From NCBI GenBank assembly GCA_016932115.1, contig JAFGDM010000081.1, positions 1 to 47,797 of the forward strand: a stretch of DNA of 47,797 nt, written 5' to 3'. The position numbers were made by a program, and so were the translations under genes. Origin of the DNA: Deltaproteobacteria bacterium (lineage in GTDB: Bacteria; Desulfobacterota; DSM-4660; Desulfatiglandales; HGW-15). The notes under the pieces were generated by a model. That model was not told where the DNA came from. It was given only the letters and a program-made list of their open reading frames with translations, and ran no database searches. Shown in pieces: positions 862 through 38,183 of this stretch (positions are counted from its first letter, which is position 1; each line of letters opens with the position of its first letter).

Positions 862-1008
862 CTCTTTTCGGAAAAATAGTGTTTTGTCATTCTCAGCAGA
901 ATTTTGCCGGTTGACTTTGCCTTAAAAACAAGTTATGAGATCGCATATTATTGTTATAATAACTTTTTATCCACTGTTTCCGTCAGCTACAAGGAGTTGA
1001 AGGAGGAA

Positions 1009-2307
1009 ATGCCTATGGCAGATGAAGCGTTGGAGTTGAGCGAACTTAAAGGAGAATTCAGGAAGAAAGTCAATGAGCTTTTACCTGAGGGAAATCTGAA
1101 TCTCTGCTTCACCTGTGGTACCTGTGCCAGCGGTTGTCCGGCTACCGGACTCGAGAACATGGACCCAAGAAAATTTGTCAGGATGATAGCGCTGGGTCTT
1201 GATGATGAGGTAACGAGCACACCCTGGGTGTGGATGTGCAGCATGTGTCAGCGTTGTATCTATGCCTGCCCCATGAATGTTGATATCCCCCGGATGGTAT
1301 ACCTTGCTCGCCAGGCATGGCCGCGTGAGGAAAGGCCTAAAGGGATCCTCGGTTCATGCGATATGGCTCTCAGGAACGACAGTTGCAGCGCCATGGGAGC
1401 GTCGCCTGAGGATTTTCAGTTTGTTGTAGAAGACGTGGCGGAGGAAGTTAGAGAAAACCATCCCGGATTCGAGACGCTCCAGGCCCCGATAGACAAAGAG
1501 GGCGCTTATTTTTTTCTCAACCAGAATTCAAGAGAGCCGGTGACGGAGCCGGATGAAATGATCCCTCTGTGGAAGATTCTCCACCTTGCCGGAGCAGACT
1601 GGACCTATGGCTCCAAGGGGTGGGGCGGAGAAAACTACTGTATGTTTCTGGCTGATAGTGATGCCTGGGAACACATCGTTCGTACGAGCATAAAGCAGGC
1701 CGAAGATCTAGGGTGTAAGGTTTATCTCAATACCGAGTGAGGCCACGTGACCTTCGCAGTCCTGGAAGGACTGAAAAAATTTGGAATCAAGACCGACCTG
1801 GAAATTGCAAGCATTTATCAATACTATGCCAAATGGATCAGGGAGGGAAAATTAAAGGTTAATTCGGACTGGAACAAAGATCTAAAGATAAAATTCACGG
1901 TTCAGGATCCGTGTCAGATCGTCCGAAAAAGCTATGGTGACCCTGTAGCGGAAGATTTACGCTATGTTGTCAGATCCGTTGTCGGGGATGAAAATTTTAT
2001 TGATATGACACCTAACAGGTCCAACAATTATTGTTGTGGTGGTGGCGGTGGATATCTGCAATCCGGTTATGTTGAAGCACGTCATCAGTATGGGAAGGTC
2101 AAATTTGACCAGATCGTTGCTACAGGGGCCGATTATTGCGTTGCCGCATGCCATAACTGTCACGCCCAGATTCATGATCTGGCGGAGCATTTTGAAGGTA
2201 AATACCATACTGTCCACCTGTGGACTTTGATTTGCCTCGCCATGGGAGTTCTAGGTGAAAACGAGCGTACATATTTGGGTCCCGATCTGGCGGAGGTGGG
2301 GCTCTGA
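1009..2307 (+). CDS. HdrD/GlpC-like Fe-S oxidoreductase (ferredoxin domain plus two cysteine-rich CCG-type domains), read through in-frame UGA 1738-1740 as selenocysteine
   Basis: Track ORFs 904-1740 and 1747-2307 share one frame and are separated only by TGA-GGC-CAC. The N part has CFTCGTCASGCP and CSMCQRCIYACP. The C part has DPC...NNYCCGGGGGY. The likely start is ATG 1009 or 1015, after AGGAGG at 1001-1006. A hairpin begins 16 nt after the UGA. Confidence 0.75.
1757..1773 (+). promoter_or_regulatory. Putative bacterial SECIS hairpin for UGA 1738
   Basis: CAGTCC-TGGAA-GGACTG: 6-bp stem and 5-nt loop, starting 16 nt after the UGA. Confidence 0.55.
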
Positions 2308-2366: not shown

Positions 2367-2471
2367 CGGCTACAGGTTCCCTGAGAAATAAAGGGTAAGA
2401 GCCATGTGAAAGCGACCCCCCGGGCCTGATGCCGGCGGTTTTTTCAAAAAGCTGAAACGTTACCCCGCTTT

Positions 2472-3314
2472 TTAATACTCCGGCGGCATCCGCTTGAGCT
2501 GAGCCAAGGAAAAAACCGGCCCATCTTTGCACACATACTGATCTCCAATGTTGCACCGTCCGCAAATGCCGATTCCGCACTTCATGCGCATTTCCAGGGA
2601 TAGAATGATTTTCTCCGCGGGGAACCCCAGTTTTTCCAGCACGGGCTGGGTAAACTTGATCATGATCGGCGGCCCGCACACAATGGCAAAGGCGTCATCC
2701 GCGCTCTTGATTTTTTGCTCTGTAACCGTGGGGACGAACCCTACGTTGTATTTCCAGTTTGGATCATCGGTGGCGTCCACGGTGATGTGCATGTTGATGT
2801 CGTCGCGCTGTTCCCATGCTGCGAGTTCATCCTTGTATAAAAGCATGCCGGGGTTCCGGGCTCCATACACAACGGTTATATCCTTGAATCGCGGCCGGTT
2901 GTCCGGGTGGATCATATAGACAATGCTGGAGCGCAGGGTGGTGAAGGCAAAACCGCCCCCTATAATCACCACGTTTTTCCCTTCCATCTCCTCCCAGGGA
3001 TACCAATTTCCCAAGGGGCCGCGAATGCCCATCACCTCTCCCTCTTTCATGTTGTGGAGATAATTAGTTACCTGACCGACCTTATTCACCGTGAAGGTGA
3101 CAACCCCCCCCTCCGTAGGGGAAGAAGCAATACCGATGGGGATCTCGCCTTTTCCGGCAATGGAAAGCTCCGCAAACTGGCCCGGAATATAGGAAAACTT
3201 TTTTTCATCTTCCGGATCCAGAAAAACGAACCTGAAGGTTTTCAAATTTCGGTCTTCAGTCTCCGTGGTAATCTGATCGATACGAACAGGATAAGGCAAA
3301 TAAGGGTTGTGCAT
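2472..3314 (-). CDS. FAD/NAD(P)H-binding oxidoreductase with C-terminal [2Fe-2S] (FlxA / sulfhydrogenase gamma / AsrB / PyrK-like)
   Basis: 280 aa. The start resembles a ferredoxin-reductase-type barrel. There is a GGGFAF nucleotide-binding stretch and a C-terminal MKCGIGICGRCNIG...CKDGP cysteine cluster. Confidence 0.75.
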   Translation of the reverse strand: MHNPYLPYPVRIDQITTETEDRNLKTFRFVFLDPEDEKKFSYIPGQFAELSIAGKGEIPIGIASSPTEGGVVTFTVNKVGQVTNYLHNMKEGEVMGIRGPLGNWYPWEEMEGKNVVIIGGGFAFTTLRSSIVYMIHPDNRPRFKDITVVYGARNPGMLLYKDELAAWEQRDDINMHITVDATDDPNWKYNVGFVPTVTEQKIKSADDAFAIVCGPPIMIKFTQPVLEKLGFPAEKIILSLEMRMKCGIGICGRCNIGDQYVCKDGPVFSLAQLKRMPPEY

Positions 3315-3401: not shown

Positions 3402-4439
3402 TCAATACCCGTTCATCAATCCAAACACTTCTCGAATATCGATATTAACGGGGCAGAACTGAACACATCGGCCGCAACCGACACATGCCACGCCGTTTTC
3501 GTACTTGTCCACGTAATATTTCAGCTTGTGCATGAAACGTTGTCTGACCCTTTGGAGTTTTTTGTCTCGGGGATTGTGACCTGATCCGTGAAGGGTGAAA
3601 ATCGGAAACATGCATGCGTCCCAGTTGCGTATCCTGTCTCCTTCTTTGCCGCAGGTTTCATCCTGGATGTCGAAACACCAACAGGTCGGGCAGAGGTAGG
3701 TGCAGGTTCCACAGTTGATGCAGGCAAAGGAGATCCTTTCCCAGAAGTGGGCGCTGAATAACTCATTCACGACCTTGTCTTTAAGACGATCGGTGGGTAC
3801 AGTGGAGGAAATTTTTTTCTCCGAGCCTTTGGCCAGCTCCTGCGCCTGCTTGAGGACGGTGCCGTCCGCTTTCTTTCCGCTTTTGAGCGCTCCCAGAAGA
3901 GCTTCGCCTTTGGTCGTGAGGCTCTTTACCAGAAAACGATCGCCCAGATCCACCATGAGCGCATCCAGCCCTTTCTCGCAGAATGGGCCGCTTCCAACGG
4001 ATGTGCAAAAGCAGGACGCGCAAGGCTCGTTGCAGCCAAAGCCGACAATTGTGGTCGCATTCATTCGCTGAATCCACCAGGGATCACGGTATTGGGGGTT
4101 GTCGAAATTGATGCGAACCAACTGGAAGGCAAGGGCGTCGCAGGGCCGGATTCCCACAATGGCCTGCGTTGAGAAATCTTTGGGTGTTTCCTTGATGATG
4201 TGGGCGTCTTCTTTGCTATCATCCAAAGAGTATTCGAACATCCGCTCCGATTGAGGGAAAATTATGCTTTTCGCAGAGAGCCTTGTGTTCTGGAAGTCGA
4301 AACTCGGTTTGGCGCCGTTTTTCAGCGGCCTGAAATTGTGGAAGTCCCCTTCTTTTACGGGTACAAAAACCTTATAAGCGCTTTGCAGCTCTTTAAGTGC
4401 CTCGGTCCATTCTTCCTTGGTAAATGATTTCTCAAGCAT
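3402..4439 (-). CDS. 4Fe-4S dicluster protein, FlxB / sulfhydrogenase beta / AsrA-like
   Basis: 345 aa with CINCGTCTYLCPTCWCFD and CVGCGRCVQFCPVNIDI motifs. Confidence 0.7.
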   Translation of the reverse strand: MLEKSFTKEEWTEALKELQSAYKVFVPVKEGDFHNFRPLKNGAKPSFDFQNTRLSAKSIIFPQSERMFEYSLDDSKEDAHIIKETPKDFSTQAIVGIRPCDALAFQLVRINFDNPQYRDPWWIQRMNATTIVGFGCNEPCASCFCTSVGSGPFCEKGLDALMVDLGDRFLVKSLTTKGEALLGALKSGKKADGTVLKQAQELAKGSEKKISSTVPTDRLKDKVVNELFSAHFWERISFACINCGTCTYLCPTCWCFDIQDETCGKEGDRIRNWDACMFPIFTLHGSGHNPRDKKLQRVRQRFMHKLKYYVDKYENGVACVGCGRCVQFCPVNIDIREVFGLMNGY

Positions 4440-4551: not shown

Positions 4552-5502
4552 TCATTTTACAAACTCATTGTAATCGTCCACCCGGTAAACATCGAGGGGC
4601 GGCCGCTGATCGGCACGAACGCCCGCTTCCCACCCGAAGTACTCGAAGACATCCTTGTTGAGTTTCTTGGTGAACTGCCTCATCGGTATACCGACCGGGC
4701 AAACCCTTTCACAGGCACCACAGTCGGTGCATCGTCCCGCGCAGTGGTATGCTCGCAGGAAGTGGAAGGTCATGGTATCCACAGGATCAATGCTTTTTCC
4801 TACCCATTGGGGACGGGATTCATCCACAAAACAGGTGGGGCAGTAACAAAGGGGACAGGCGTTCCTGCATGCATAGCAGCGGATGCAGGATGCAATGAGC
4901 TGAGTGAAAAATTGACGTTTTTCATCAGCACTCTTTTTTTCAATACCCTCCACGTCCTTGAAGGGGTTGACCCCTTCCAATTCCGGCACCGGATCGGCGA
5001 CCATCTCGTCGTATTCCACCGGGTTGCGATGGACGCATACGGCGCAATTGGTTCTCAGGAAATCCTTTTTTTGGAAAACTTCCTGGAAACCCTTTCCGCT
5101 CACTGTGAATGATTCGCCTTCTTCTCCCACTTCCAGAATTTCCCGATTTCCCACGGCCCTTTTCACGGCCCGATGATCAATGATACCCCTGCAGGGTATC
5201 CCGACGATATAGAGCTGTTCTCGCTTGATCTGGTTTTCAATGATATGGGTCACGATGTTGCGGGAGTTGCAGCCGTTCGCCACGAGGCCGATACGGTCGG
5301 TGCGCCCGGTCAGGTAGTTACAAAGATTCAGCCCGCAATGGCTGTCCCAATGCAGAAAGTCCACTTCGGCTGGATCCTTAATCAGCACAGGCTCATTCAT
5401 CATGGCCACAGTGCCTTTCCTGTACCCGATAAAAACATCCACCGTGCCTTTTTCCAAAAGCTTTCGAGCGATCTCTCTGATTTTCCGGGTATATTCAAAC
5501 AT
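4552..5502 (-). CDS. Fe-S protein, FlxC-like (paralog of the 41759-42886 product)
   Basis: 316 aa with CIRCYACRNACPLCYCPTCF and CTDCGACERVCPVGIPM. Its start ATG overlaps the mvhD stop (TAATG at 5500-5504). Confidence 0.6.
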   Translation of the reverse strand: MFEYTRKIREIARKLLEKGTVDVFIGYRKGTVAMMNEPVLIKDPAEVDFLHWDSHCGLNLCNYLTGRTDRIGLVANGCNSRNIVTHIIENQIKREQLYIVGIPCRGIIDHRAVKRAVGNREILEVGEEGESFTVSGKGFQEVFQKKDFLRTNCAVCVHRNPVEYDEMVADPVPELEGVNPFKDVEGIEKKSADEKRQFFTQLIASCIRCYACRNACPLCYCPTCFVDESRPQWVGKSIDPVDTMTFHFLRAYHCAGRCTDCGACERVCPVGIPMRQFTKKLNKDVFEYFGWEAGVRADQRPPLDVYRVDDYNEFVK

Positions 5503-5939
5503 TACGCCACCTCAGCTCTTTTCTTGACAAGATAGGCCGCAGGCCCGGCGTCTTTGACCGAATGGAAGATTTCTGTCGCCACCTCCACGAATTTGGTAGC
5601 TTCAGCGGAGGAAATCCAGGAAAAATGAAGCCTTCCCGGCTCCAGTCCGATATGTTCCAGAAGGTTTTTGAGGAGAGCGAACTTGCGTCTTGCGTAATAA
5701 TTACCTTCCAGGTAATGGCAGTCTCCGGGGTGTCACCCGGAAACCCACACCCCGTCGGCACCGTGCCGGAAAGCGGCCAGGATGAGTTTGGGGCTTACCC
5801 GGGCGGAGCAGGGCACGCGAATGACACGGATATTGGAAGGGTACTGCAAACGGCTGACTCCGGCCAGGTCCGCCGCTCCGTAACTGCACCAGTTGCAAAG
5901 GAATGCGGTAATTTTCGGCTGCCAATCGTTCATGGGCAT
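5502..5939 (-). CDS. mvhD: MvhD/FlxD-type [2Fe-2S] protein, selenocysteine form (UGA at 5735-5733)
   Basis: Track ORF 5733-5939 ends ...[12 protein letters not shown]. Hand translation continues in frame as [44 protein letters not shown]... to TAA at 5504-5502. The Cys paralog at 41309 reads [28 protein letters not shown], which places the UGA exactly on a conserved Cys. Confidence 0.85.
5700..5716 (-). promoter_or_regulatory. Putative bacterial SECIS hairpin for UGA 5735-5733
   Basis: Minus strand ATTACC-TGGAA-GGTAAT: 6-bp stem and 5-nt loop, starting 16 nt after the UGA. Confidence 0.55.
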
Positions 5940-6029: not shown

Positions 6030-9000
6030 TCACATTTCATTGATCATCGCCATGATCTGTCCTTCCTCAAAGCCTTTGAGGTTGAGAGCCCCGGAGCGGC
6101 AAGAAGAGACGCAAAGTCCGCAGCCCTTGCAAAGGACGGGGTTGATTTCCGCCTTTCCCGCAAAAGGGCCTTTTGGAATAAAAGACGGAGCGGAGTAAGG
6201 GCAGATCTCCACGCACACGCCGCAGCTACTGCAGACCGCCGGATTGGCGTAAGCAACCATGCCGCTTACGGAGATGTTCTTTCTGGCCAAAAGGGTGACG
6301 GCCCTGGAAGCGGCGGCTTGGGCCTGCGCCACCGACTCGTCGATGGGTTTCGGGTAGTGAGCCATTCCGCAAAGAAAAACGCCGTCCGTGGCAAACTGTG
6401 AGGGGCCTAGCTTCGCATGGGCTTCCACAAAGAATCCGTCCTCGCTCATGGGCACTTTGAAGAATTGGGCCAGTTTTTCGTCCTTGTAGGGAACGATGGC
6501 CGAAGCCAGGGTGAGCAGATCCGCCATGACTATGACAGGGCGCTGCAGCACATGATCCATCACCTCAATCTCGATGCCTTCCTTGCCGACTGTAACCCTC
6601 GGCTTTTGAGCACGGGAGAAGCGGATGAAAATGACGCCCGCTTCTCGCGCAGCTCTGTATAGGAGTTCGCGCTCCCCATAGGTGCGGATGTCCCGATTGA
6701 GAATGTACACGTCCATACCCGGGTTGATTTCCTTGAGATGGAGGGCGCTACCTATGGAGTGGGTGCAGCAGACCCTCGAACAGTAAGGCCTTTCCGGCTC
6801 CCGGGATCCCACGCACTGGATGAATACGGCACACTTGATGCGTTTAAGGGATGAATCTTGATCGATAAACTTGCGGTCCAGTTCCTGGTGCGTGAGGATC
6901 CGGGGATCTTTGCCGTAGAGATATTCCTCGGGTTTGTGTTCGTAGCATCCGGTAGCCAGCACCGCAATTCCGTGTTCGAGGGTCCCCTTTGTACCGCCGG
7001 CTTTAAAGGTGGATTTGAAGTTGCCCACAAAGCCCTCAACCTGCGTTAGCTCGGCGCCAAGATGGGTCTCGATATTTTTGTCACCCTGCACCGATGTAAC
7101 AAGGGTTTTCAGGTTTTCCTGGATATCTTCTCCCTGCCAGGTCTTATACAGGTTGATCGCTTGGCCTCCGAGAACCGGTTCGCGTTCGATAAGATCCACC
7201 TGGTAGCCCTGGTCGCTCAAGGTTTTTGCCGCGGCCATGCCGGATATGCCGCCGCCGATGACCAGGGCTCGCTGGTTGACGTCCAAGGCCGCTTCGGGAA
7301 GGCCTTCCATGAGGGCGACCTTGGCCGTTGCCATGCGCACCAGGTCTTTGGCCTTGACGGTTGCTTTCGAGGGACTTTCCTTATGGACCCACGAATCCTG
7401 GTTGCGGATGTTGGTCATTTCAAATAGATATTTGTTCAGCCCGGCGGCGACAAGGGTTTCCTGGAAAAGAGGCTCATGGGTCTTGGGCGTGCAGGCGGCC
7501 ACCACGATCCGGTTGAGGTTGTTGGCCTTGATCACTTGAGTCATGGCGTCCTGGGTATCCTGGGAGCAGGAGTAAAGGTTGTCCGCCACGTATTCTACAT
7601 AGGGCAAAGTCTTGGCATAGTCACGCACAGCCGGAACATCCACCACACTGCCTATGTTGATTCCACAATGGCACACAAAAACCCCGATCCGGGGTCTTTC
7701 TCCACGGGTGTCCTTTTGTTCGATCACTTCTTTCGTTTTGGTGAGCGTGTTTCTTGCGCTGCTCAGAAGGGCACCGGCCCGGGCGGCCGCAGAGCTCGCT
7801 TCGATAACCGACTGAGGAATGTCCTTGGGACCCTGAAAAGCGCCGCACACGTATATGCCTTCCTTGGATGTGGCCACAGGCGCAAAAGAGCCGGTGCGGC
7901 AAAAATGGGATTCCGTAAGGTCGATGCCGAGCTTTCCTGCCAGCTCCATAACCTCGGGGGAGCTTTCCAACCCGACGGAAAGGACGACCATGTCAAAGGT
8001 TTCTTTGTGAAGCGCACCGTCTTCCGTCGCATACCGGACGCTCAAATCCTCGGTTCCCGGAACCCCCTCGACTGTGTGCACACGGCACCGGATGAACCGA
8101 ACTCCGTGTTTTTCCCTGGCTGCGTCATAGTACCTTTCAAACTCCTTTCCGTGGGTCCGCATGTCCATGTAGAAGATGGCGCACTCCAGATCGGCTCCGG
8201 AATGCTCCTTGGCGATCACCGCTTCTTTGATGGCGTACATGCAGCACACGGAAGAACAGTAAGGGTGATCGGAGGGATGGATCTCCCTGGATCCCACGCA
8301 CTGGAGCCAGGCGATCTTCTTGGGCTCCTTGTGGTCCGACATCCGCGCCAGGTGTCCCATGGTCGGACCGGAAGCCGAAAGAATCCTTTCGAACTCCATG
8401 GATGTTACGACATTTGGAAGCCGGGCATAGTTGTATGTGTCATGCTTCGAGGGGTCGAAAGGCTGGAACCCGGGGGCCAGGATGATAGCGCCTACCTCAA
8501 GTTCGATGATCTCGTCCTTCTGTGTGTAATCGATGGCGCCCACCCCGCAAAACTCCGCGCAGATTTTGCACCCTCCTGTCTTGAAATGCATGCATTTGCT
8601 CCGGTCGATGGCCGGGATATTCGGGATAGCCTGCGCATAAGGGACGTAAATGGGCTTTCGGCCCTTCAGTCCCATATCGTACTCGGAAGGAATTTTCTTT
8701 ACAGCGTGCTTGCTGATGTCTTCCAGTTTGATGTGGCCTGTGGGGCAAACGGAAGCGCAGGCCCCGCAGCCCATACAGTATTCCGTCTGGATATGAAAAG
8801 GGGTGTCCACCTTCATTTCCGTGCCGCGGCCCGTCAGGCTTATGGCCGCATTGCCCATTTTCTCGCAGATCCGAGTGCACAGCCCGCAAAGAATGCAGTC
8901 GTCCTGTTCTTTCTTGAACCTTGGCTCTACGATCCCGTACTTTTTTGCAAGGTTTTTGAGAAGAGGGACATCAGGGCAACGGGCGAAGAGCAGTTCAACA

Positions 9001-9263
9001 ATCAGCTTGCGGCCTTTGCGGACGGCCTCAGAGTCGGTTTTGACCTCCATTCCTTCCCAAATGGGGTAGTTGCAGGCTGTCACAAAACGGGTCCGCCGCC
9101 CGTCAAAAAGCTCGACGGTGCAAAGGCGGCACATCCCGGCAGGCTCCAGGGCCTTGTGATAGCAAAGGGTCGGGATGTCGATCCCGTATTTCTGCGCAAC
9201 CTGCAGGATGTATTGGCCTTCTTCTCCCTGGACGGTCTTCCCATTCATCTTGAACGTAATCAT
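6030..9263 (-). CDS. Fusion protein: NuoG/HndD-type N-terminus ([2Fe-2S] plus 4Fe-4S motifs), then the C-terminal part of one HdrA FAD module, an HdrA N-terminal-type Cys domain, a second complete HdrA FAD module and a 2x[4Fe-4S] ferredoxin domain
   Basis: The real start is most likely MITFKMNGKTVQ at 9263. The track start at 9521 overlaps the nuoF-like gene. Motifs present: CYH...CRLC, CILCGLCTRIC, CMGCGACASVCP, KKIPSEYDMGLKGRKPIY, CVGSREIHPSDHPYCSSVCC, RIGVFVCHCGINIG...VVAACTPKTHE, VIGGGISGMAAA, CVGSREPERPYCSRVCC, CSSCGVCVEICP and CKGCGLCVSSC. Confidence 0.8.
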   Translation of the reverse strand: MITFKMNGKTVQGEEGQYILQVAQKYGIDIPTLCYHKALEPAGMCRLCTVELFDGRRTRFVTACNYPIWEGMEVKTDSEAVRKGRKLIVELLFARCPDVPLLKNLAKKYGIVEPRFKKEQDDCILCGLCTRICEKMGNAAISLTGRGTEMKVDTPFHIQTEYCMGCGACASVCPTGHIKLEDISKHAVKKIPSEYDMGLKGRKPIYVPYAQAIPNIPAIDRSKCMHFKTGGCKICAEFCGVGAIDYTQKDEIIELEVGAIILAPGFQPFDPSKHDTYNYARLPNVVTSMEFERILSASGPTMGHLARMSDHKEPKKIAWLQCVGSREIHPSDHPYCSSVCCMYAIKEAVIAKEHSGADLECAIFYMDMRTHGKEFERYYDAAREKHGVRFIRCRVHTVEGVPGTEDLSVRYATEDGALHKETFDMVVLSVGLESSPEVMELAGKLGIDLTESHFCRTGSFAPVATSKEGIYVCGAFQGPKDIPQSVIEASSAAARAGALLSSARNTLTKTKEVIEQKDTRGERPRIGVFVCHCGINIGSVVDVPAVRDYAKTLPYVEYVADNLYSCSQDTQDAMTQVIKANNLNRIVVAACTPKTHEPLFQETLVAAGLNKYLFEMTNIRNQDSWVHKESPSKATVKAKDLVRMATAKVALMEGLPEAALDVNQRALVIGGGISGMAAAKTLSDQGYQVDLIEREPVLGGQAINLYKTWQGEDIQENLKTLVTSVQGDKNIETHLGAELTQVEGFVGNFKSTFKAGGTKGTLEHGIAVLATGCYEHKPEEYLYGKDPRILTHQELDRKFIDQDSSLKRIKCAVFIQCVGSREPERPYCSRVCCTHSIGSALHLKEINPGMDVYILNRDIRTYGERELLYRAAREAGVIFIRFSRAQKPRVTVGKEGIEIEVMDHVLQRPVIVMADLLTLASAIVPYKDEKLAQFFKVPMSEDGFFVEAHAKLGPSQFATDGVFLCGMAHYPKPIDESVAQAQAAASRAVTLLARKNISVSGMVAYANPAVCSSCGVCVEICPYSAPSFIPKGPFAGKAEINPVLCKGCGLCVSSCRSGALNLKGFEEGQIMAMINEM

Positions 9264-9285
9264 GGGGCAAATCCTTTTCTCTTCC

Positions 9286-11187
9286 CTACTTAACCACAAT
9301 GGCGTCAAACTTACAGGTGTCGTAGCAAATCCCGCACTTGATGCATTTTTCCTGGTCCAGTGTGTGAAGTTTTTTCTTCTCGCCGGTGATGGCTTGCTGT
9401 GGGCACTTGAGGGCGCACACGTGACACCCGGTGCAAGCTTTTTCATCCACCTCGTAATGAAACAGGGGTTTGCAAACGCCTGCAGGGCATTTCTTATCGT
9501 AAATGTGGGCCTCGTACTCATCTCGGAAGTAGAGAATCGTGGTAAGCACCGGATTTGGCGCTGAGGTGCCCAGCCCGCACAGGGAGAACTTCTGAATCAT
9601 GCTTCCCATTTCTTCAAGAAGCTCAATGTCTCCTTCCTTCCCCCGGCCTTCGCAAATGTCCGTGAGCACATCGAGCATCTGCTTGATTCCCTCTCTGCAG
9701 GGGGTGCACTGGCCGCACGATTCTCCTTTGAGAAAATCCAGAAAGTAGCGGGCCAAATCCACCATGCAGGTGCCCTGATCCATCACGATCATGCCGCCGG
9801 ATCCCATCATGGAACCCACCTTGGTGAGCTCATCGTAACCCACCTGGAGATCCAGGAAGGCCTCAGGGATGCACCCTCCCGAAGGGCCTCCTGTCTGGAC
9901 GGCCTTGAATTTACGTTTCTTGGGAATTCCTCCTCCCATCTCAAAGATGATCTCGCGCAAGGTGGTTCCCATCGGTACTTCGACCAAGCCTGTATTCTTC
10001 ACCTTGCCCACCAGGCTGAAAACCTTTGTTCCTTTGCTGTACTTCGTTCCCATGCTGCTGAACCAGTCGGCTCCCTTGAGCATGATGACGGGGACATTGG
10101 CATAGGTTTCCACATTGTTGAGGTTGGAGGGGCCGTCCCTGAAGCCCTTTTCCACGGTGTGGACATACTTGGCTCTGGGCCTTCCGACATTTCCCTCGAG
10201 GGAGGCCATGAGGGCCGTAGACTCGCCGCAAACAAAGGCGCCTGCGCCGGTCGAAATCTTGACGTGGAAACCGAAATCCGACCCGGCGATGTTGTCCCCG
10301 AGAAGTCCAAAATCCTCCGCTTGCTTCAGGGCCGACACAAGGCGTTTAACGGCCAGAGGATATTCGTTGCGCACGTAAATGAAACCCTGAGAGGACCCAA
10401 TCGCATAAGCCGCGATAAGCATTCCCTCCAAAACACTGTGAGGGTCGCCCTCCAGAACACTCCTGTCCATGTAGGCGCCGGGATCTCCCTCATCGGCGTT
10501 GCAGATGACATAGCGCTCTCCCGGGTGTTTGCGACAGCTCTCCCATTTGATGCCGGTGGGGAAACCTCCCCCGCCCCTTCCCCTCAGACCGGACTTCTTA
10601 ATGGTCGCAATGATCTCCTCATGTTTCATCTCAGCGAGGATGCGGACAAAAGCGAAATACCCGCCTCGCCCGATATACTCTTCTATGCTGTCAGGATCGA
10701 TGTAACCACAATTGCGCAAAGCGATTTTGATCTGATGAGCGTAAAAAGGGATTTCATCCAGGAAAGGGATTCCCTTGATGGGATTTACCTTTTCAAGCGG
10801 GTTAGGCCGATCCTCTTCAATGACGGATCTGGGGTCGCGCATCTGACCGAGAATCAATTTTTTGCTGAATGTTTCTTCCATGTAATCCTGGAATACATCC
10901 GGTAGTTTGTCCTCTGTCACACGTTTGTAGACGACCCTCGGTTTACCCTTGGCCAAAATCTCCACCAGGGGTTCTTCTTCACAAAAACCGATGCAGCCGG
11001 TCTGGCGGATTTCAATGGAATCACCGGCGGGATGCTCCTTCAGCGCCCTTTCAAGCGTTGCCCTGGCCCCTGCAGCGATCCCGCAAGAGGCCATGCCCAC
11101 GTTGACCTTGACGCCCTGCGGAAAGGAGAGCTTCTCGTTGAATTCTTCGCTGATCTTCTCCAGATCCTTTACAGATAAAATTCTCAT
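9286..11187 (-). CDS. NuoF/HndC/HydB-like NADH-binding FMN flavoprotein with an N-terminal thioredoxin-like domain and a C-terminal 2x[4Fe-4S]
   Basis: 633 aa with GRGGGGFPTG, ESCGQCTPCREG, CTGCHVCALKCP and CIKCGICYDTC. Confidence 0.85.
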   Translation of the reverse strand: MRILSVKDLEKISEEFNEKLSFPQGVKVNVGMASCGIAAGARATLERALKEHPAGDSIEIRQTGCIGFCEEEPLVEILAKGKPRVVYKRVTEDKLPDVFQDYMEETFSKKLILGQMRDPRSVIEEDRPNPLEKVNPIKGIPFLDEIPFYAHQIKIALRNCGYIDPDSIEEYIGRGGYFAFVRILAEMKHEEIIATIKKSGLRGRGGGGFPTGIKWESCRKHPGERYVICNADEGDPGAYMDRSVLEGDPHSVLEGMLIAAYAIGSSQGFIYVRNEYPLAVKRLVSALKQAEDFGLLGDNIAGSDFGFHVKISTGAGAFVCGESTALMASLEGNVGRPRAKYVHTVEKGFRDGPSNLNNVETYANVPVIMLKGADWFSSMGTKYSKGTKVFSLVGKVKNTGLVEVPMGTTLREIIFEMGGGIPKKRKFKAVQTGGPSGGCIPEAFLDLQVGYDELTKVGSMMGSGGMIVMDQGTCMVDLARYFLDFLKGESCGQCTPCREGIKQMLDVLTDICEGRGKEGDIELLEEMGSMIQKFSLCGLGTSAPNPVLTTILYFRDEYEAHIYDKKCPAGVCKPLFHYEVDEKACTGCHVCALKCPQQAITGEKKKLHTLDQEKCIKCGICYDTCKFDAIVVK

Positions 11188-11208
11188 TTTTCTGCCTCTT
11201 CCGGGCTT

Positions 11209-11706
11209 CTATTCGTAACGCTCCAAGGTTTTCGCCACTTGATCCGGGGACAGGCGGGCATGAACATCCTCATTGATCTTGACCACGGGCCCAAGACTGC
11301 AGCAGCCGATGCAGCGCACGGATTCAAGCGTAAAGGAACCGTCCTCAGTGGTTTGGCCGTTCGAGATGTGCAGGAGCTGCTCAATCTGTTCTTGGACTCG
11401 TTTGGCGCCCCTCACGTGGCAGGCCGTTCCGAGACAAACGGTAATGAGGTTTCGGCCTCTCGGTTCCAAGCTGAAGGTGGCGTAAAATGTGGCGATTCCA
11501 TAGATCCGGCTTAAGGGAACGCCGGTTTTTTCAGCGAGGTAGGCGAGGGCGGGTCTCGGAATGTAGTTATACCGGCCCTGAATCCCCTGAAGCATCATGA
11601 TTAGGTTTTCCTTGTCGCTGCCGTATGTTTCCTCGATGATTTTATCCATCTCGACATAATCCAGTTCCTCGGGAGAAGGGGCAATCGCAACGGGTTCCTT
11701 GTTCAT
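11209..11706 (-). CDS. NuoE/HndA-like thioredoxin-fold [2Fe-2S] protein
   Basis: 165 aa with CLGTACHVRGA ... CIGCCSLGPVV. Confidence 0.85.
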   Translation of the reverse strand: MNKEPVAIAPSPEELDYVEMDKIIEETYGSDKENLIMMLQGIQGRYNYIPRPALAYLAEKTGVPLSRIYGIATFYATFSLEPRGRNLITVCLGTACHVRGAKRVQEQIEQLLHISNGQTTEDGSFTLESVRCIGCCSLGPVVKINEDVHARLSPDQVAKTLERYE

Positions 11707-11719
11707 AAAGACATCCTCT

Positions 11720-12136
11720 TCACTGAGCCTCGCCGGATGATCCTGTGCGTTCTACCGCACCGGCCTCATACAAGACGGGACAGTTCTCAATGCAAACACC
11801 GCATCCGGTACAAAGATCCATATTGATGCTCCGGGCCCTTTTTCTTATCTTCACTTTAAAATGTCCAGGGCTTCCTTCGACAGACTCAAGATCCGAATAG
11901 GTAATGAGTTCAATATTGAGATGCCGGCCGACCTCGACCAGTTTAGGGGAAATGATTCACATCGCACAGTCATTGGTGGGAAAAGTTTTATCCAATTGGG
12001 CCATAACCCCGCCAATGGCCGGGGATTTTTCCAGGAGATACACGTAATATCCGGAATCCGCCAGATCAAGGGCGGATTGCATCCCTGCGATGCCTCCACC
12101 CACAACAAGGACTGAACCTTTTATAGTGTTTGACAT
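11720..12136 (-). CDS. hdrA: HdrA N-terminal fragment (FAD-binding GGGIAG, DCAM-U motif, first CxxCxxCxxxCP), with selenocysteine at UGA 11959-11957. Not present in the ORF track.
   Basis: Hand translation from ATG 12136 (RBS GGAGAAATAAGG) gives [126 protein letters not shown]...Q, ending at TGA 11722-11720. It aligns by eye to both HdrA paralogs in this window. Confidence 0.75.
11924..11941 (-). promoter_or_regulatory. Putative bacterial SECIS hairpin for UGA 11959-11957
   Basis: Minus strand CTGGTCG-AGGT-CGGCCGG: 7-bp stem (two G-U pairs) and an AGGU loop, starting 15 nt after the UGA. Confidence 0.5.
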
Positions 12137-12455
12137 CCTTATTTCTCCTTTGTGTTCATCTTAACAGGTATCGCTTAGAGCTTTCTTATGGCAAGGCACT
12201 TGAAGTTGTCATCCGGATTGAGCCTTCTCGTGCATGATTCTCAGGCCCGAAGAAATTGGATCAGCTGATGCGTCGACAAATCGACATCCGTGATCGAGTA
12301 AGGGTCGGGCTTTACAAGGAAGGGGTTTGGGGATCTGTCCTTCCCTACGGAACCTGTATATCAATGGAATACAGTCGAGGGTAAAGATAGCCGTGGGAAG
12401 GCGAGTCTGTCAATGGTTTTTTGCTCATTCTGTGTGGGAAAGAATCAGGAAAGGG

Positions 12456-12498: not shown

Positions 12499-13821
12499 CT
12501 ATGCAGCCAAACGAACCGCGTTTTCTGTTACCTTACGGATCTCATCAGGCGTGAAGGGCTTGGGGAGGTAATCGACTGCCCCCAACCTGGCGCTCTCTTT
12601 GGCTGTTTCGATGCTGGCATAGCCGGTGATGATGACAACGGGCGTCTGCGGGCTCTTTTTTCTAATAGTTTGGAGAAGTTCCAGCCCCTGCACGCCGGGT
12701 ATCCTGAGGTCGAGTAGCACCAGTCTGTAAGCTTTCTCCTGGATGCTCCGCAGCGCTTCTTCTTTGGTCATCGCCTGATCTACGGTGAAACCTTTTTTTG
12801 TCAGGATCTTGCGAATATTGTTGTTGACGGCCGCTTCGTCGTCGATAACCAGAATGTCTTGCCCGGTCACTTCGTCCCTTGTAAAGGGAATATCCACATC
12901 AATGATTCGCCTCCTTTCGGCTGCCATTGCGGGTGGAAGCACTCTACGAGGGGCCCTGAGAGGAAAAACGACATCCATGACTTGCCTTCTTTTAGCCAGC
13001 GCCATTTTTTCCTTGAGTTCCTCATAAGGCACAAAGACAACCCCGTCGCCTTGGAGGTGCATGAGGTATTCAGGGCCTGTGATTGAAGCGACCTCCTCAT
13101 AGCTGAAAGGCTGATCAATGCCGACAAGCTTCTTGGGGTCGAATGTTTTTTCGCCCCTGCTTTCTTCCTTGGCCCTCGCGGCATGTTTGGCTTGCGGGCA
13201 TTCGTTCGCCTTAAGGCCCGCCTTGCAGGTGGCGCCGAGTTTCTTGAAAATTTCGCAAACCTTATGCCCTACGGCGCAATAGTACTCGAGAGTTTCCGGC
13301 GAAGGCATCTCCACAACGGGCATGTCCGAGGGGCCCAGCGTATCTGCGTAGGCCTCGCCCGCGAATTCGGCTACCTCCTGCCGATCGAAAGGGATGTCGA
13401 GATCGATGACATCGATCGTCTTTTTCACCTTTTCGGATACCGGCATCTCTTGCAGCTCTCCGGACAAAACCTTGTCCACTGTCTCCCGTACTTCTTTGGG
13501 CGTGAAAGGCTTGGGAATATAATCCAGAGCGCCCAGCCGGATGGCTTTCATGGCCGTATCGGTAGAGGCATAAGCGGTCATGATGATTACCTTGGTCAGA
13601 GGCCACTGTTCTTTGACAAGCTTCAAGAGCTCGAGGCCGTTTTTACCGGGCATCAAAATGTCGGATATGAGCAGGGAATAGGACTCGTTCGCCATCAGTT
13701 CAAGGGCGTCTCTGGCGCTGAAGGCCTGAGTCACTTCATAATTTTCCTTGGTGAGTATCTTACGCACATTGTCACAAATTCCCTTTTCATCGTCGACTAC
13801 CAGAATCTTTTTTGTTTCCAT
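12499..13821 (-). CDS. Dual response-regulator receiver protein (REC, about 200-aa Cys-containing linker, REC) with no recognisable output domain
   Basis: 440 aa. REC1 is KKILVVDDE...DILMPGKNG...KPF. REC2 is ILVIDDE...LDLRIPGVQG...KPF. The linker carries C-X6-C-X9-C-X8-C and three D-x-PF-x3-EV repeats. AGGAGG RBS precedes ATG 13821. Confidence 0.8.
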   Translation of the reverse strand: METKKILVVDDEKGICDNVRKILTKENYEVTQAFSARDALELMANESYSLLISDILMPGKNGLELLKLVKEQWPLTKVIIMTAYASTDTAMKAIRLGALDYIPKPFTPKEVRETVDKVLSGELQEMPVSEKVKKTIDVIDLDIPFDRQEVAEFAGEAYADTLGPSDMPVVEMPSPETLEYYCAVGHKVCEIFKKLGATCKAGLKANECPQAKHAARAKEESRGEKTFDPKKLVGIDQPFSYEEVASITGPEYLMHLQGDGVVFVPYEELKEKMALAKRRQVMDVVFPLRAPRRVLPPAMAAERRRIIDVDIPFTRDEVTGQDILVIDDEAAVNNNIRKILTKKGFTVDQAMTKEEALRSIQEKAYRLVLLDLRIPGVQGLELLQTIRKKSPQTPVVIITGYASIETAKESARLGAVDYLPKPFTPDEIRKVTENAVRLAA

Positions 13822-14250: not shown

Positions 14251-15690
14251 TCAAAGATTGTTATCAGGTTTTTTGTGGGGTGGAGAGGAACGGGTTAACA
14301 GGGAGATCCCATGCTTTTTCATGAGATTTTGAAAGTTGGGCCTTTGGAGCCCCACTTTTTTTGCTGCCCGTGTAACGTTCCAGTCGTTTTGCATCAGGGC
14401 CTGGATGATGAAATTTTTTTCCACCTCTCGCACGGCTTTTTCCCGGATCTCTTTTTTGGCCCGTTTCAGATCTTCATTGTTTTCAGGGACTTGGATGACT
14501 AATCCTGCCGTGTCTTGAAGGGCAGGCAGTTCCTTGGGGGTGATCTCATCGCCTTCACAAAGAATCACCGCACGCTCGATTGCGTTCTTGAGCTGCCGCA
14601 CATTTCCAGGCCAATCATAGGCCGTCAACCCGGCCGAGGCTTCCATGGAGAAGCCCTTTATCCCCTTCTGTGTGATGTTGCCGAACTGCCTGAGAAAGTA
14701 ATAGGCGATGGGCAGAATGTCGCTTTTCCTCTCCCTGAGGGGCGGCGTAAAGATGGGATATACAAAGATGCGATAATAGAAATCCTGCCTGAAGGAGCCC
14801 TCTTTCACCATTTCCATCAGGTCTCTGTTGGTGGCAAAGATCAGGCGAACATCAATGTGTTGTTTTACTGTTGCACCAAGGGGAAGGTATTCCCGGGTTT
14901 CAAGGAAACGCAGGAGCTTGCCCTGCACCTCCGGGCTGATGTTGCTGATTTCATCCAAAAACACGGTGCCGCCTTGCGCCGCCTTGAAGATTCCTTCCTT
15001 GTTTTTAAAGGCTCCGGTAAACGCGCCTCTCTCATAGCCGAAGAGCTCGCTTTCCAGGAGGTTACCGGACAAAGTCCCACAATCAACGGCGAAAAAAACA
15101 CGTTCCTTCCGTCTGCTGTTGGCATGAATGGCCCGGGCGATCAACTCCTTGCCCGTGCCGCTTTCCCCGCAGATAAGAACCGTTGAATCGGTCGGGGCCA
15201 CCTTCCCGATCATCTGGATGACCGACTGCATTTTCCGGCTTTTACCGATGAGTTGGTGTGTGACGACTCCCGGCATGTCTTGGTGGGCCTTCATCTCACG
15301 ATTCTGCAGGCGGGTTTCCCAGTCCAAAAGAGCGCGACGAACAACGTTTCTCAACTCTTCCGGGGTGAAGGGCTTGGGAAGGTAATCGTAGGCGCCCATC
15401 TTCATGACTTCAACGGCCGACGACACCGTCGCGTACCCGGTGATCACAATGACGATCGTTTCGGGATAGGATTCCTGCACACGCCTGAGAACCTCCATTC
15501 CCCCCATGCTGGTCATCTTTAGATCCGTAATAATGAGATCAAAAGGGCGTGTCTGCATCATCTTGAGCGCATCATAGCCGTTCAATGCGTACTCAGCTTC
15601 GTACCCCTCTTTGGAGAGGATTTTGACGCAGCTCCGGCAGATGCCCAACTCATCATCCACTACAAGCATCCGGGGTTTCTTATCCGGCAT
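14251..15690 (-). CDS. sigma54-dependent NtrC/Fis-family response regulator (REC, AAA+, HTH)
   Basis: Motifs MLVVDDE, GESGTGKE, GAFTGA and a C-terminal Fis-type HTH. The probable start is MPDKKPRML at 15690, which overlaps the kinase stop by 11 nt. Confidence 0.85.
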   Translation of the reverse strand: MPDKKPRMLVVDDELGICRSCVKILSKEGYEAEYALNGYDALKMMQTRPFDLIITDLKMTSMGGMEVLRRVQESYPETIVIVITGYATVSSAVEVMKMGAYDYLPKPFTPEELRNVVRRALLDWETRLQNREMKAHQDMPGVVTHQLIGKSRKMQSVIQMIGKVAPTDSTVLICGESGTGKELIARAIHANSRRKERVFFAVDCGTLSGNLLESELFGYERGAFTGAFKNKEGIFKAAQGGTVFLDEISNISPEVQGKLLRFLETREYLPLGATVKQHIDVRLIFATNRDLMEMVKEGSFRQDFYYRIFVYPIFTPPLRERKSDILPIAYYFLRQFGNITQKGIKGFSMEASAGLTAYDWPGNVRQLKNAIERAVILCEGDEITPKELPALQDTAGLVIQVPENNEDLKRAKKEIREKAVREVEKNFIIQALMQNDWNVTRAAKKVGLQRPNFQNLMKKHGISLLTRSSPPHKKPDNNL

Positions 15691-33553: not shown

Positions 33554-34547
33554 CCAGGCACTCGCATGAGGGAAGGCCGTTGATAAACTCTGTCCCTTCT
33601 CCCGGTCCCATCACAAAGACGCCGGTGGAAAGAGCGTCCGCCTCCATAGCCGTTCGGGCCGTTACGGAAACGCTGCTTGCAAGGTGTGGAGAGAGCCCTG
33701 TCTTTGGATTCACGATGTGGTGAAACATTTTTTCCCGGTCGAAGTAGATCTCATAATTACCGGAGGTGGCGATTGCTCCGTCCTTCATCTGAACCATATC
33801 AGGGTATTGACTTCGTTTCAGGGGATCCTGGACAGCCACGGTCCAGGGCTTTTCGCCTTCTTTTTTTCCTCGGGTTCGAATATCCCCGCCGGCGTCGATC
33901 AGATGATTTTCGACCCCCCTGGAGGCAAGAAGCTCTGATGCTTGATCCACGATGAAGCCTTTTGCGATACCGTCGAGGGTAATTCCCATGCCTGATTCCA
34001 CGAAGCGGATGGAACGGTCATGAAGTCCCACCTTACCTGCATCCACCAGTTTTAGCAGAGCTTTCAACTCCTGTTCCGTGGGCCGGTCCTTTTTGTCGCC
34101 CCCCAGCTTTTGCCGGAAAAGGTCTACAACAGGTTTCACGGTGATATCAAAGGCGCCATAAGTCAGCTTGTGGTAGTGTAGAGCCCTCGACACGACCCGG
34201 ATCACTTCGGGAGGCAGATCCCGGGCGTAGCCTTCTTTGTTGAGAAAAGCTACGGCTGAAGATCGGTCATAGCGAGTCAGAATCCCGGCGAGACGGTCGA
34301 TTTCCTGAAAAGCCTGTTCCATTGCCTCTTCCGCCTGATCCTTTACAGGGTGAAAAAGGGTCATGGAAACATAAGTGCCCATGATCAACCGCCTTTCGGA
34401 TACCATCATCGTCTGCTTGTTGAACCTGACGGCTTCCGCTGCAGAAGGTATCAGAGTTGTTGCGGCTGCGCTCATTCCGAGCAGGCCCGAAAGCTTGAGA
34501 AACGATCTCCGGTCCAACCGGTGGAACATGAGATCCATATCTTTCAT
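33495..34547 (-). CDS. apbE: FAD:protein FMN transferase (ApbE family) with a Tat-type signal
   Basis: RRSFLKLSG signal, plus GIAKG, DAGGDI and HHIVNPKTG motifs. Confidence 0.85.
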   Translation of the reverse strand: MKDMDLMFHRLDRRSFLKLSGLLGMSAAATTLIPSAAEAVRFNKQTMMVSERRLIMGTYVSMTLFHPVKDQAEEAMEQAFQEIDRLAGILTRYDRSSAVAFLNKEGYARDLPPEVIRVVSRALHYHKLTYGAFDITVKPVVDLFRQKLGGDKKDRPTEQELKALLKLVDAGKVGLHDRSIRFVESGMGITLDGIAKGFIVDQASELLASRGVENHLIDAGGDIRTRGKKEGEKPWTVAVQDPLKRSQYPDMVQMKDGAIATSGNYEIYFDREKMFHHIVNPKTGLSPHLASSVSVTARTAMEADALSTGVFVMGPGEGTEFINGLPSCECLVISRNGSQSKSRGWKSAAI

Positions 34548-38180: not shown

Positions 38181-38183
38181 GAC

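Follow-up and report, generated by a model that had tools for sequence, protein, structure and literature searches.

An operon that divides the first flavin domain of HdrA between two genes around a Bfu-type module, and the double electron-bifurcating complex it may encode

Introduction

Flavin-based electron bifurcation is the source of low-potential ferredoxin in many anaerobes, and four bifurcating enzyme families are known. Here, we describe a minus-strand operon (12136 to 2472) located in contig JAFGDM010000081.1 of Deltaproteobacteria bacterium (assembly GCA_016932115.1), which was analyzed over its positions 1 to 47,797 (hereafter the window). In this operon, the gene encoding the heterodisulfide reductase subunit HdrA is interrupted by genes predicted to encode a bifurcating module of the Bfu type. 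The 5' portion of the gene is referred to as hdrA-N, whereas the remainder of HdrA is fused to a short NuoG-like domain, BfuA', in a protein of 1077 residues designated the fusion.

Among known systems, the nearest counterpart is the class II benzoyl-CoA reductase (BCRII) of Geobacter metallireducens, Bam[(BC)2DEFGHI]2 (bioRxiv 10.64898/2026.04.10.717634), which had been predicted as 'Bam-Bfu' (PMC9304861). As in the window, Bfu-type subunits (NuoE-like BamG, NuoF-like BamH, and short NuoG-like BamI) are combined with a tandem HdrA, BamE, and with a selenocysteine (Sec)-containing MvhD, BamF. In both cases, the flavin adenine dinucleotide (FAD) site of bifurcation, with a Lys at the flavin N5, is assigned to the first FAD domain of the tandem and not to the second. 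The two systems differ by the organization of the polypeptides since BamE is one unbroken chain and BamI a protein of its own that feeds the C-terminal ferredoxin of BamE, whereas in the window domain 1 is split, with BfuA' joined to HdrA at the inserted ferredoxin domain. In other phyla, the N-terminal half of domain 1 (N-half) is additionally fused to BfuC. The window operon also lacks the tungsten subunits BamBC and BamD, FlxCBA being present instead. No gene for an aldehyde:ferredoxin oxidoreductase (AOR) or a BamD-like protein was found in the operon, and a BamB-like AOR gene was only detected beside a single-chain relative, P0242, described below.

Downstream from the fusion gene, the operon resembles the NADH dehydrogenase/heterodisulfide reductase FlxABCD-HdrABC of Desulfovibrio vulgaris (Ramos et al. 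2015, as cited in PMC10553843), with homologues of mvhD (flxD), flxC, flxB, and flxA in the same order, and with dsrC or hdrCB adjacent in relatives of the operon. The Flx-Hdr system contains a conventional HdrA encoded by one gene and lacks a Bfu module; its low-potential arm presumably delivers electrons to free ferredoxin. Compared to that gene set, the window has the flxDCBA-like genes, a split and fused hdrA, and no hdrBC within the operon, only a convergent hdrC-like/CCG pair; hdrBC is inside the operon in relatives such as L005.

Three additional systems share part of the architecture. The HdrA of the MvhAGD-HdrABC complex of methanogens (PDB 5odc) has the same fold, cofactor motifs, and N- and C-terminal domains, but is a single-gene homodimer with a hydrogenase as the donor and free ferredoxin as the low-potential acceptor. 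The HdrA9-11 proteins of anaerobic methanotrophic (ANME)-1 archaea have received a second flavin or NAD(P)H module, an NfnB-like insertion of 500 residues, within this very ferredoxin domain, potentially giving two bifurcation sites (PMC9012536), indicating that this domain is a known grafting point. In these proteins, the insert belongs to another bifurcating family and is part of one polypeptide, whereas the window combines BfuA', two separate genes, and a split host gene. The type 2 Bfu enzyme WorABCSL (PDB 9mqx; PMC12318220) shares the BfuA N-terminal domain with clusters A1, A2, and A4, a conserved BfuBC core, and the absence of both the His-ligated A3 cluster and a large C-terminal domain. 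WorA recruits its partner via a C-terminal helix, whereas in the window HdrA is covalently fused to BfuA.

A literature search retrieved no description of the split and fused layout, although the HdrA review of Appel et al. (2021) may contain one. The layout is unlisted in the Bfu classification paper and its supplement, the latter having no Hdr entry. The genome paper of Desulfotignum phosphitoxidans writes clusters as nuoEFG-mvhD-hdrA with no mention of a split (PMC4046663).

Results and discussion

Partition of HdrA between two genes

The operon comprises eight tightly spaced genes separated, in the order of transcription, by 13, 21, 22, 90, -1, 112, and 87 nt. All elements named in an initial annotation of the sequence, made without database searches, were located at the coordinates and on the strand that it gives. 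The genes and their parts are as follows.

11720..12136 (-): hdrA-N, 138-codon selenoprotein gene (translation, BLASTP, NCBIfam HdrA2 profile, and ratio of nonsynonymous to synonymous substitution rates, dN/dS)
11957..11959 (-): in-frame TGA, Sec60 of hdrA-N (Cys at the same codon in homologous loci)
11924..11941 (-): hairpin CUGGUCG-AGGU-CGGCCGG of the Sec insertion sequence (SECIS) type, 15 nt after the UGA of hdrA-N
11209..11706 (-): bfuC (nuoE-like), 165 residues, thioredoxin-like [2Fe-2S] protein (Pfam PF01257 2Fe-2S_thioredx, E 3.6e-48; NCBIfam NuoE/HoxE)
9286..11187 (-): bfuB (nuoF-like), 633 residues (Complex1_51K, E 1.5e-43; NADH_4Fe-4S, E 2.3e-32)
6030..9263 (-): BfuA'::HdrA fusion, 1077 residues, ATG at 9263, 22 nt past the nuoF stop
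8742..9263 (-): fusion residues 1-174, BfuA'/NuoG-type N-terminal domain (Pfam Fer2_4, Fer4)
8700..8741 (-): fusion residues 175-188, linker TGHIKLEDISKHAV between BfuA' and the resumed HdrA
7704..8699 (-): fusion residues 189-520, C-terminal part of thioredoxin-reductase domain 1 (matches to HdrA by BLASTP and phmmer)
6030..7703 (-): fusion residues 521-1077, second HdrA unit (phmmer to 5odc_A residues 2-232 and 503-646; Pfam; motif census)
5503..5939 (-): mvhD/flxD, 145-codon selenoprotein gene (Pfam FlpD, E 3.7e-53; TGA 5733-5735; hairpin 5700-5716)
4552..5502 (-): flxC-like iron-sulfur protein, 316 residues, with a start that overlaps the stop of mvhD (Pfam Fer4_8; weak FrhB_N match)
3402..4439 (-): flxB-like protein of the ShyB/AsrA type, 345 residues (Pfam Fer4_22, E 1.6e-32; NCBIfam ShyB, E 1.8e-44, under its cutoff)
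2472..3314 (-): flxA-like FAD/NAD(P)H-binding [2Fe-2S] protein of the ShyC/AsrB type, 280 residues (Pfam NAD_binding_1, FAD_binding_6, DHODB_Fe-S_bind; NCBIfam)

The product of hdrA-N (138 codons and a stop) contains a GxGxxG motif at residues 13-18, the sequence FPTNDCAM-U with a C57-x-x-U60 pair (the TGA being codon 60), and, at residues 109-120, the first CxxCxxCxxxCP motif of the inserted ferredoxin, beyond which a tail of 18 residues remains. It corresponds to the FAD-binding beta-alpha-beta N-half of the HdrA thioredoxin-reductase domain 1. BLASTP aligned its residues 5-120 with residues 140-255 of the canonical HdrA encoded elsewhere in the window (gene starting at 36219; 54% identity, E 5e-45). 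Residues 157-486 of the fusion aligned with residues 238-554 of the same protein (E 4e-72), and residues 158-1077 were collinear with residues 123-1015 of an unsplit tandem HdrA (gene starting at 38184; E 9e-141). In the NCBIfam HdrA2 profile, hdrA-N covered positions 137-257 (E 4e-47) and the first module of the fusion positions 248-576 (E 6e-232). These E-values are far beyond chance.

The overlap between the two pieces in the BLASTP alignments consists only of the generic CxxCxxCxxxCP motif. The copy present in the fusion (C163-P174) is part of the NuoG-type domain and is trailed by a CPTG-type tail, then by the linker. HdrA resumes at K189 with KKIPSEYDMGL, compared to KKVPSEYDMKL straight after CP in canonical HdrA. 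Joining residues 1-120 of hdrA-N to residues 189-520 of the fusion generated an alignment of 436 columns to HdrA residues 140-569, with 44.5% identity and no gap at the join. The initial annotation had proposed that hdrA is split within its inserted ferredoxin domain around nuoE, nuoF, and nuoG', and had suggested a joint alignment as a check; the two pieces do partition HdrA exactly, and the lack of complementation that it had named as counting against its reading did not occur. Its proposal that the last NuoG-type motif runs into the HdrA sequence holds insofar as HdrA resumes in the fusion, but not directly since a linker of variable sequence intervenes (14 residues here, 14 to 20 among homologues). 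As shown by these alignments, the bifurcating-type FAD domain 1 of HdrA is built from two polypeptides.

The motifs are distributed accordingly along the two chains. Methanogen HdrA of the 5odc type is characterized by a Cys194/197 pair, a CVGSRD...YCSxVCC cluster, and Lys409. The domain 1 portion of the fusion contains Cys motif 2 of the inserted ferredoxin (C224/232/235/239), CVGSRE...YCSSVCC, the C-terminal FAD motif, and, within CCMYAIK, a Lys. Thus, the inserted ferredoxin, the CVGSRD-type cluster, and the Lys are all present, with motif 1 in hdrA-N and the rest in the fusion, and the two halves of an FAD domain, GxGxxG and the C-terminal FAD motif, are found for domain 1 only when hdrA-N and the fusion are considered jointly. 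In a census of 113 close homologues of the fusion, the GxGxxG and FPTxDCxxC motifs of domain 1 were absent in cis from every protein, the cluster motif and the C-terminal FAD motif were present in all, and the Lys of CCMYA[IV]K was present in 111. The sequence MITFK, which begins at the ATG at 9263, was the common start of the 120 homologues listed, and this ATG is taken as the true start of the fusion.

The second HdrA unit comprises an N-terminal Cys domain, a full thioredoxin-reductase domain 2, and a C-terminal 2x[4Fe-4S] ferredoxin. Its FAD domain is complete in cis (GxGxxG at residue 667), lacks DCxxC, and harbors E, D, or G in place of the Lys. Based on these motifs, this unit is probably non-bifurcating. 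The pattern of a split domain 1 and a complete domain 2 fits published descriptions of tandem HdrAs, in which Cys197 of one unit and the N-terminal Cys domain of the other are complementary (PMC9012536), and of BamE, in which the first FAD is bifurcating and the second structural (bioRxiv 10.64898/2026.04.10.717634). The scores obtained with the NCBIfam HdrA2 profile, 772 bits for the fusion and 161 bits for hdrA-N, are below the equivalog cutoff of 1100 bits, and the two proteins are classified, on this profile, as HdrA homologues rather than equivalogs.

hdrA-N is a selenoprotein gene under selection

Sec60 of hdrA-N is equivalent to Cys197 of Methanothermococcus thermolithotrophicus HdrA (5odc alignment numbering). 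A Sec residue at this position is a known variant of HdrA. The codon is TGC or TGT (Cys) in L003, L004, L005, and L014 (L numbers designate surveyed loci) and in all fusions of the N-half to NuoE. The 18-nt sequence CUGGUCGAGGUCGGCCGG was identical in the eight TGA-bearing copies of hdrA-N, synonymous positions included, although adjacent codons varied freely. It forms the SECIS-type hairpin, with a 7-bp stem and an AGGU loop. All four Cys-bearing copies encoded the same residues with different codons and lacked the hairpin. Likewise, the hairpin AUUACC-UGGAA-GGUAAU of mvhD was conserved in approximately 23 TGA-bearing mvhD genes of related loci and in none of the Cys-bearing ones. Single-sequence fold z-scores of the hairpins were not significant, and the evidence for SECIS elements comes from comparative folding. 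Rfam and tRNA scans of the window returned only a tRNA-Leu, without any match to a bacterial SECIS family. Both hdrA-N and mvhD therefore combine an in-frame UGA at a Cys position with a downstream SECIS hairpin, as do bacterial selenoprotein genes.

The functional context of this residue is documented in related proteins. In methanogen HdrA, Cys197 ligates the N-domain cluster of the partner subunit (PMC9012536), and in BamE the Cys59-Cys62 pair, the counterpart of which includes Sec60, makes a disulfide beside the bifurcating FAD (bioRxiv 10.64898/2026.04.10.717634).

The small gene could be the leftover of a rearrangement, domain 1 being a flavin-free structural remnant and only domain 2 working. 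The structural role attributed to one of the two FAD domains of BamE (bioRxiv 10.64898/2026.04.10.717634) and the existence of one locus without the fragment (L015) are in line with this explanation, which is nevertheless very improbable and largely refuted by several observations. Pairwise dN/dS values for hdrA-N ranged from 0.03 to 0.08, which indicates strong purifying selection, synonymous sites being near saturation. The search with the fragment revealed more than 120 clusters of intact stand-alone homologues (120-150 residues, 71-87% identity). The SECIS hairpin is invariant, in-frame fusions of the N-half to NuoE occur in many phyla, and the Lys near the flavin N5 together with the FAD and cluster motifs are kept by domain 1 and not by domain 2. 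Decay of the small gene, which the initial annotation had named as an outcome that would count against its reading, was not seen. Because of the low dN/dS, the conserved SECIS, and the retention of the cluster Cys and FAD motifs, neither piece is considered degenerate, and hdrA-N has the sequence marks of a working, non-decaying selenoprotein gene. Gene callers shortened the Sec versions to 59 residues, with a stop at the Sec codon, thereby hiding the small subunit in annotation.

The inserted genes are of the Bfu type

The NuoF-like protein comprises an N-terminal [2Fe-2S] domain, a flavin mononucleotide (FMN)/NADH site, a [4Fe-4S] cluster, and a C-terminal 2x[4Fe-4S] region, as expected for BfuB. 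It matched over its full length StnB (8oh5_B), NiFe-HydB (7t2r_B), FeFe-HydB (7q4v_B), and NfnB (9n5u_B), with E-values of 1e-204 to 1e-212. Identity to StnB and HydB was approximately 60-65%, extra terminal cluster domains included, and the residue-level alignment to StnB, NiFe-HydB, and HydB spanned residues 27-632. True NuoF proteins matched the core only (E ~1e-100).

The NuoE-like protein has the [2Fe-2S] domain of BfuC, and the N-terminal domain of BfuA is present in the fusion. Residues 1-78 form a Fer2_4 [2Fe-2S] domain, which is followed by the Cys motifs C123/126/129/133 and C163/166/169/173-P174. All cluster Cys residues of BfuA' were invariant in the alignment of homologues. The His-ligated cluster, A3, is absent, as in type 2 Bfu enzymes, whose short BfuA has been described (PMC9304861; PMC12318220). 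The best match of known structure was the 247-residue short BfuA of WorABCSL (9mqx_A, E 6.5e-42). As shown by these assignments, a short BfuA with clusters A1, A2, and A4 is fused via the 14-residue linker immediately ahead of the resumed HdrA, BfuC and BfuB remaining separate proteins.

The main alternative considers NuoE, NuoF, and NuoG' as a non-bifurcating NADH input similar to the N-module of complex I or to the Hox diaphorase, leaving a single bifurcation site. The top NCBIfam names were indeed NuoE, NuoF, and HoxU, but no NuoF or NuoG cutoff was reached and NuoE passed only one (143.6 versus 141 bits). The NuoF-like protein has the terminal domains that mark BfuB and is far closer to bifurcating enzymes than to NuoF (E ~1e-210 versus ~1e-100). 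The NuoG part is limited to 174 residues and lacks the His-cluster motif, in contrast to the long NuoG of complex I with its molybdopterin-like domain, and no other nuo gene is present in the window. In addition, the loci encoding fusions of the N-half to NuoE keep accessory genes of the kind present in HydABC hydrogenase operons. The genome paper of D. phosphitoxidans interprets clusters of this type as a module of NADH dehydrogenase (PMC4046663), and NADH alone appeared able to reduce the clusters of BamGHI in BCRII (bioRxiv 10.64898/2026.04.10.717634). Considering both sides, we regard a plain NADH input as unlikely. The domain content of the inserted genes identifies them as a putative HydBC/Bfu-type NADH- and ferredoxin-linked bifurcating module rather than a module of the complex I type.

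The initial annotation had envisaged that an NADH-oxidizing FMN module is wired into the flavin site of HdrA. This interpretation holds in substance, with two amendments: the module is of the bifurcating Bfu type instead of plainly NADH-oxidizing, and the tether is the inserted ferredoxin domain instead of the flavin site itself.

Distribution and gene-order variants

The survey combined look-ups of single homologues, one scan of species-representative genomes with alignment of the junction, and tblastn searches with tables of open reading frames (ORFs). The initial annotation had proposed a survey of related genomes for the gene order hdrA-N, nuoE, nuoF, nuoG-N::hdrA-C. The split was found, in the variants given below, in approximately 30 loci from independent assemblies with at least 13 phylum-level labels, and at least 15 junction-spanning clusters were present in a representative library built at 50% identity. 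No cultured host appeared among the names of cluster members, which were at the level of metagenome-assembled genomes (MAGs). The public names of the pieces are generic ("FAD-dependent oxidoreductase", "heterodisulfide reductase subunit A").

This recurrence bears on the possibility, raised by the initial annotation, that the junctions are assembly or frameshift artefacts of one hdrA gene or of unrelated neighbors. Metagenome assemblies can create chimeras, and one homologue, P0243, is visibly frameshifted. However, the same order and junction in approximately 30 independent assemblies, including contigs of 8.16 Mb and 2.43 Mb, and the narrow length range of the 120 fusion homologue clusters listed (1077-1088 residues) refute this explanation, the residual probability of which is negligible.

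Four variants were observed. In variant (a), to which the window belongs, the order is fragment, nuoE, nuoF, fusion, and mvhD; flxCBA and/or hdrCB come next, and dsrC is often close by. The hosts are Desulfobacterota (L001-L003, L008-L014), a MAG labelled Poribacteria (L004), and a Chloroflexota MAG (L005), and both Sec and Cys forms are present. Irrespective of the variant, the flxC-like gene is syntenic in L002, L003, L005, L008, L012, L013, and L018, and hdrC-hdrB are within the operon in L001, L004, L005, L016, L019, L025, and L028.

In variant (b), the N-half is fused in frame to NuoE, with Cys in all copies. This form, which accounts for most of the split loci and occurs in most of the other phyla, was found in approximately 18 loci with the labels Planctomycetota, Spirochaetota, Cloacimonadota, Gemmatimonadota, Fibrobacterota, Acidobacteriota, Bacteroidota, Bipolaricaulota, Stahlbacteria, and one archaeon. 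An example is the 286-residue protein of L016, with FAD_oxidored at residues 12-49 and 2Fe-2S_thioredx at residues 148-285. DRTGG, CBS-HATPase, and PHP genes often lie between nuoF and the fusion gene in this variant; in L016 (6182-9004), DRTGG, CBS-HATPase, PHP, and HATPase genes occupy this position. These intervening genes resemble the accessory genes of HydABC hydrogenase operons.

Two loci contain a canonical, non-tandem HdrA cut at the same point. In L006, the order is [N-domain + N-half + motif 1::NuoE], NuoF, [BfuA'::HdrA C-part, 594 residues], and HdrCB. L028 has the same interruption, with the N-part ([N-domain + N-half + motif 1]) encoded by a separate, unfused gene upstream from nuoE. 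In L006 (1796-10941), the genes for the single-module split enzyme and the HdrCB fusion adjoin those for an acyl-CoA dehydrogenase and for EtfBA. This neighborhood hints at a link to beta-oxidation, with electron-transfer flavoprotein as a partner as in BCRII.

Variant (c) is P0242, a single chain of 660 residues (N-half, linker, BfuA', C-half), the gene of which adjoins the BamB-like tungsten AOR gene. Variant (d) consists of unsplit tandem HdrAs of approximately 1220 residues encoded by hdrC-hdrB-hdrA-mvhD-metV-metF loci (L039, 8233-11901; L040, 8071-11868). At this same insertion site, these proteins contain a pair of additional ferredoxin domains, of which the distal one is BfuA'-like; they might be either an intermediate or derived from the split form.

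Evolutionary and structural relationships between the two halves

Neighbor-joining trees of the N-half and the C-half shared one well-supported grouping. L006, L028, and canonical HdrA were grouped in both trees, with bootstrap values of 67% (N-half) and 92% (C-half), and the main split clade was kept intact in both. The two halves share an evolutionary history. Deep nodes had a support of 0-14%, only the group of L006, L028, and canonical HdrA being supported, and the bootstrapped trees did not resolve whether fission and insertion or domain insertion came first.

A structure model was obtained with AlphaFold2 for P0242, the natural single-chain relative. The predicted local distance difference test (pLDDT) score was 84-98 in both HdrA halves. 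A Foldseek search with the model retrieved 5odc_A (E 1.5e-48, root-mean-square deviation 1.9 Å), and a core of 428 residues matched 8rwn_A with a template-modelling (TM) score of 0.93. In this model, P0242 is thus predicted to form an intact HdrA core. Gene fusions of the Rosetta-stone type also physically link the pieces, the N-half to NuoE in approximately 18 loci, and the N-half to BfuA' and the C-half in P0242.

Proposed complex and electron path

Since the split is conserved across at least a dozen bacterial phyla, the operon appears to encode one complex of two machines. We consider it likely that this complex is a multi-subunit iron-sulfur flavoprotein joining two different bifurcating modules, with the wiring and reaction proposed below. 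The core is accompanied in relatives by mvhD, flxCBA, and hdrCB or dsrC.

By sequence, hdrA-N contributes the FAD-binding beta-alpha-beta unit, C57-x-x-U60, and Cys motif 1 of the inserted ferredoxin, and the fusion contributes Cys motif 2, the rest of FAD domain 1, and the complete second HdrA unit. Because each cluster generally draws on both motifs in the 2x[4Fe-4S] ferredoxin fold, both clusters of the inserted ferredoxin would be ligated by Cys residues from two polypeptides, stitching the chains together. The contact of the N-terminus of BamG/HydC with BamI (bioRxiv 10.64898/2026.04.10.717634) fits a tethering of both HdrA halves near BfuA. The BfuA' chain would link the Bfu FMN/NADH/ferredoxin site to the HdrA flavin through the inserted-ferredoxin arm. 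In methanogen HdrA, this domain is the low-potential exit arm to ferredoxin (PMC9012536), which would place the Bfu site in series on that arm.

Based on synteny, Sec-containing MvhD and FlxCBA may bring electrons from NAD(P)H through the canonical entry at the C-terminal ferredoxin, and the high-potential electrons may be accepted by DsrC or by an HdrBC-like partner, the genes of which lie within or beside the operon in relatives. In the forward direction, the HdrA FAD would bifurcate electrons from NAD(P)H, sending them to a disulfide acceptor on one side and into the BfuA' chain on the other. A second bifurcation at the Bfu FMN would distribute the BfuA'-chain electrons between NAD+ and ferredoxin. 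The whole two-stage system is expected to be reversible.

Several points weigh against this proposal. For the proteins of the window itself, the case is drawn from sequence. In BCRII, the only solved complex containing both Bfu and HdrA, BamI feeds the C-terminal ferredoxin of BamE and not the inserted one (bioRxiv 10.64898/2026.04.10.717634), and the wiring proposed here would differ. The BfuA' insert of the P0242 model had a pLDDT of approximately 30-60 and was not placed confidently; we therefore make no statement on distances between clusters. The Cys residues might also pair otherwise, the hdrA-N motif being associated with the first motif of BfuA'. One locus is an exception to the layout: in L015 (7123-12231), from a Desulfatibacillum MAG, nuoF and a gene for a 1076-residue fusion come straight after a response-regulator gene, and neither the HdrA N-half nor nuoE is present. 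The window operon has no internal hdrBC and is accompanied only by a convergent hdrC-like/CCG pair. Finally, both the physiological acceptor and the direction in which electrons flow are conjectural.

A broader proposal is that these loci define a widespread, unnamed class of double-bifurcating enzymes, in which Bfu FMN and HdrA FAD modules are hard-wired in series via the low-potential arm and a flavin domain made of two polypeptides is tethered to BfuC and BfuA. We advance this proposal tentatively and hold it to be possible, if rather doubtful.

The presence of two bifurcating modules in one complex was previously unreported according to the 2026 preprint on benzoyl-CoA reductase (bioRxiv 10.64898/2026.04.10.717634). 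The architecture of the window would be a second example, far more widespread, with a different and covalently fixed wiring. If true, two stacked bifurcation steps would alter the NADH:ferredoxin:disulfide stoichiometry or provide access to lower potentials, with relevance to electron bifurcation and to the energy metabolism of anaerobes. The fusions reveal which parts touch, the HdrA N-half with BfuC and BfuA with the HdrA C-half, offering a testable map of the electron path. The locus is also a clear example from nature of a flavin domain of the Rossmann type that is divided between two genes and retained in that form.

Genomic surroundings

The following additional features were detected at the borders of the operon.

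12384..12413 (-): sigma-70-like promoter match TTGACA-18-TATCTT upstream of hdrA-N (10 of 12 consensus positions; pattern match only)
2397..2420 (-): terminator-like hairpin 3' of flxA (consensus scan; pattern match only)
904-1740 (+): hdrC-like gene (Pfam Fer4_17), convergent to the 3' end of the operon
1747-2307 (+): gene for a 186-residue protein with one CCG domain (Pfam CCG), convergent to the 3' end of the operon

The convergent pair (904..2307, plus strand) may encode a disulfide-reducing, HdrBC-like partner, although membership in the complex is uncertain. Immediately upstream from the operon, the minus strand encodes a double-receiver response regulator (12499-13821) and a sigma-54 activator (14251-15774), and similar regulators precede the operon in L002 and L015. 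A search for a sigma-54 promoter upstream of the operon gave no match on the operon strand, with a count of matches not above chance. Long plus-strand ORFs of up to 605 residues lie antisense to the operon, for example at 7476-9293 (+), overlapping the fusion gene. These ORFs seem to be a side effect of GC-rich codon usage.

A second Hdr cluster extends from 33495 to 43875 and includes genes for a QmoC-like membrane protein (34735-35955), the canonical HdrA (36219-38180), the unsplit tandem HdrA (38184-41240), a Cys-type MvhD (41330-41722), and an FrhB/FlxC-like protein (41759-42886). The unsplit tandem HdrA was considered as a Bam orthologue and rejected, its neighbors being the QmoC-like, HdrA, MvhD, and FrhB-like genes without any AOR gene. 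The cluster is flanked by genes for an ApbE flavin transferase and a RibF FAD synthetase.

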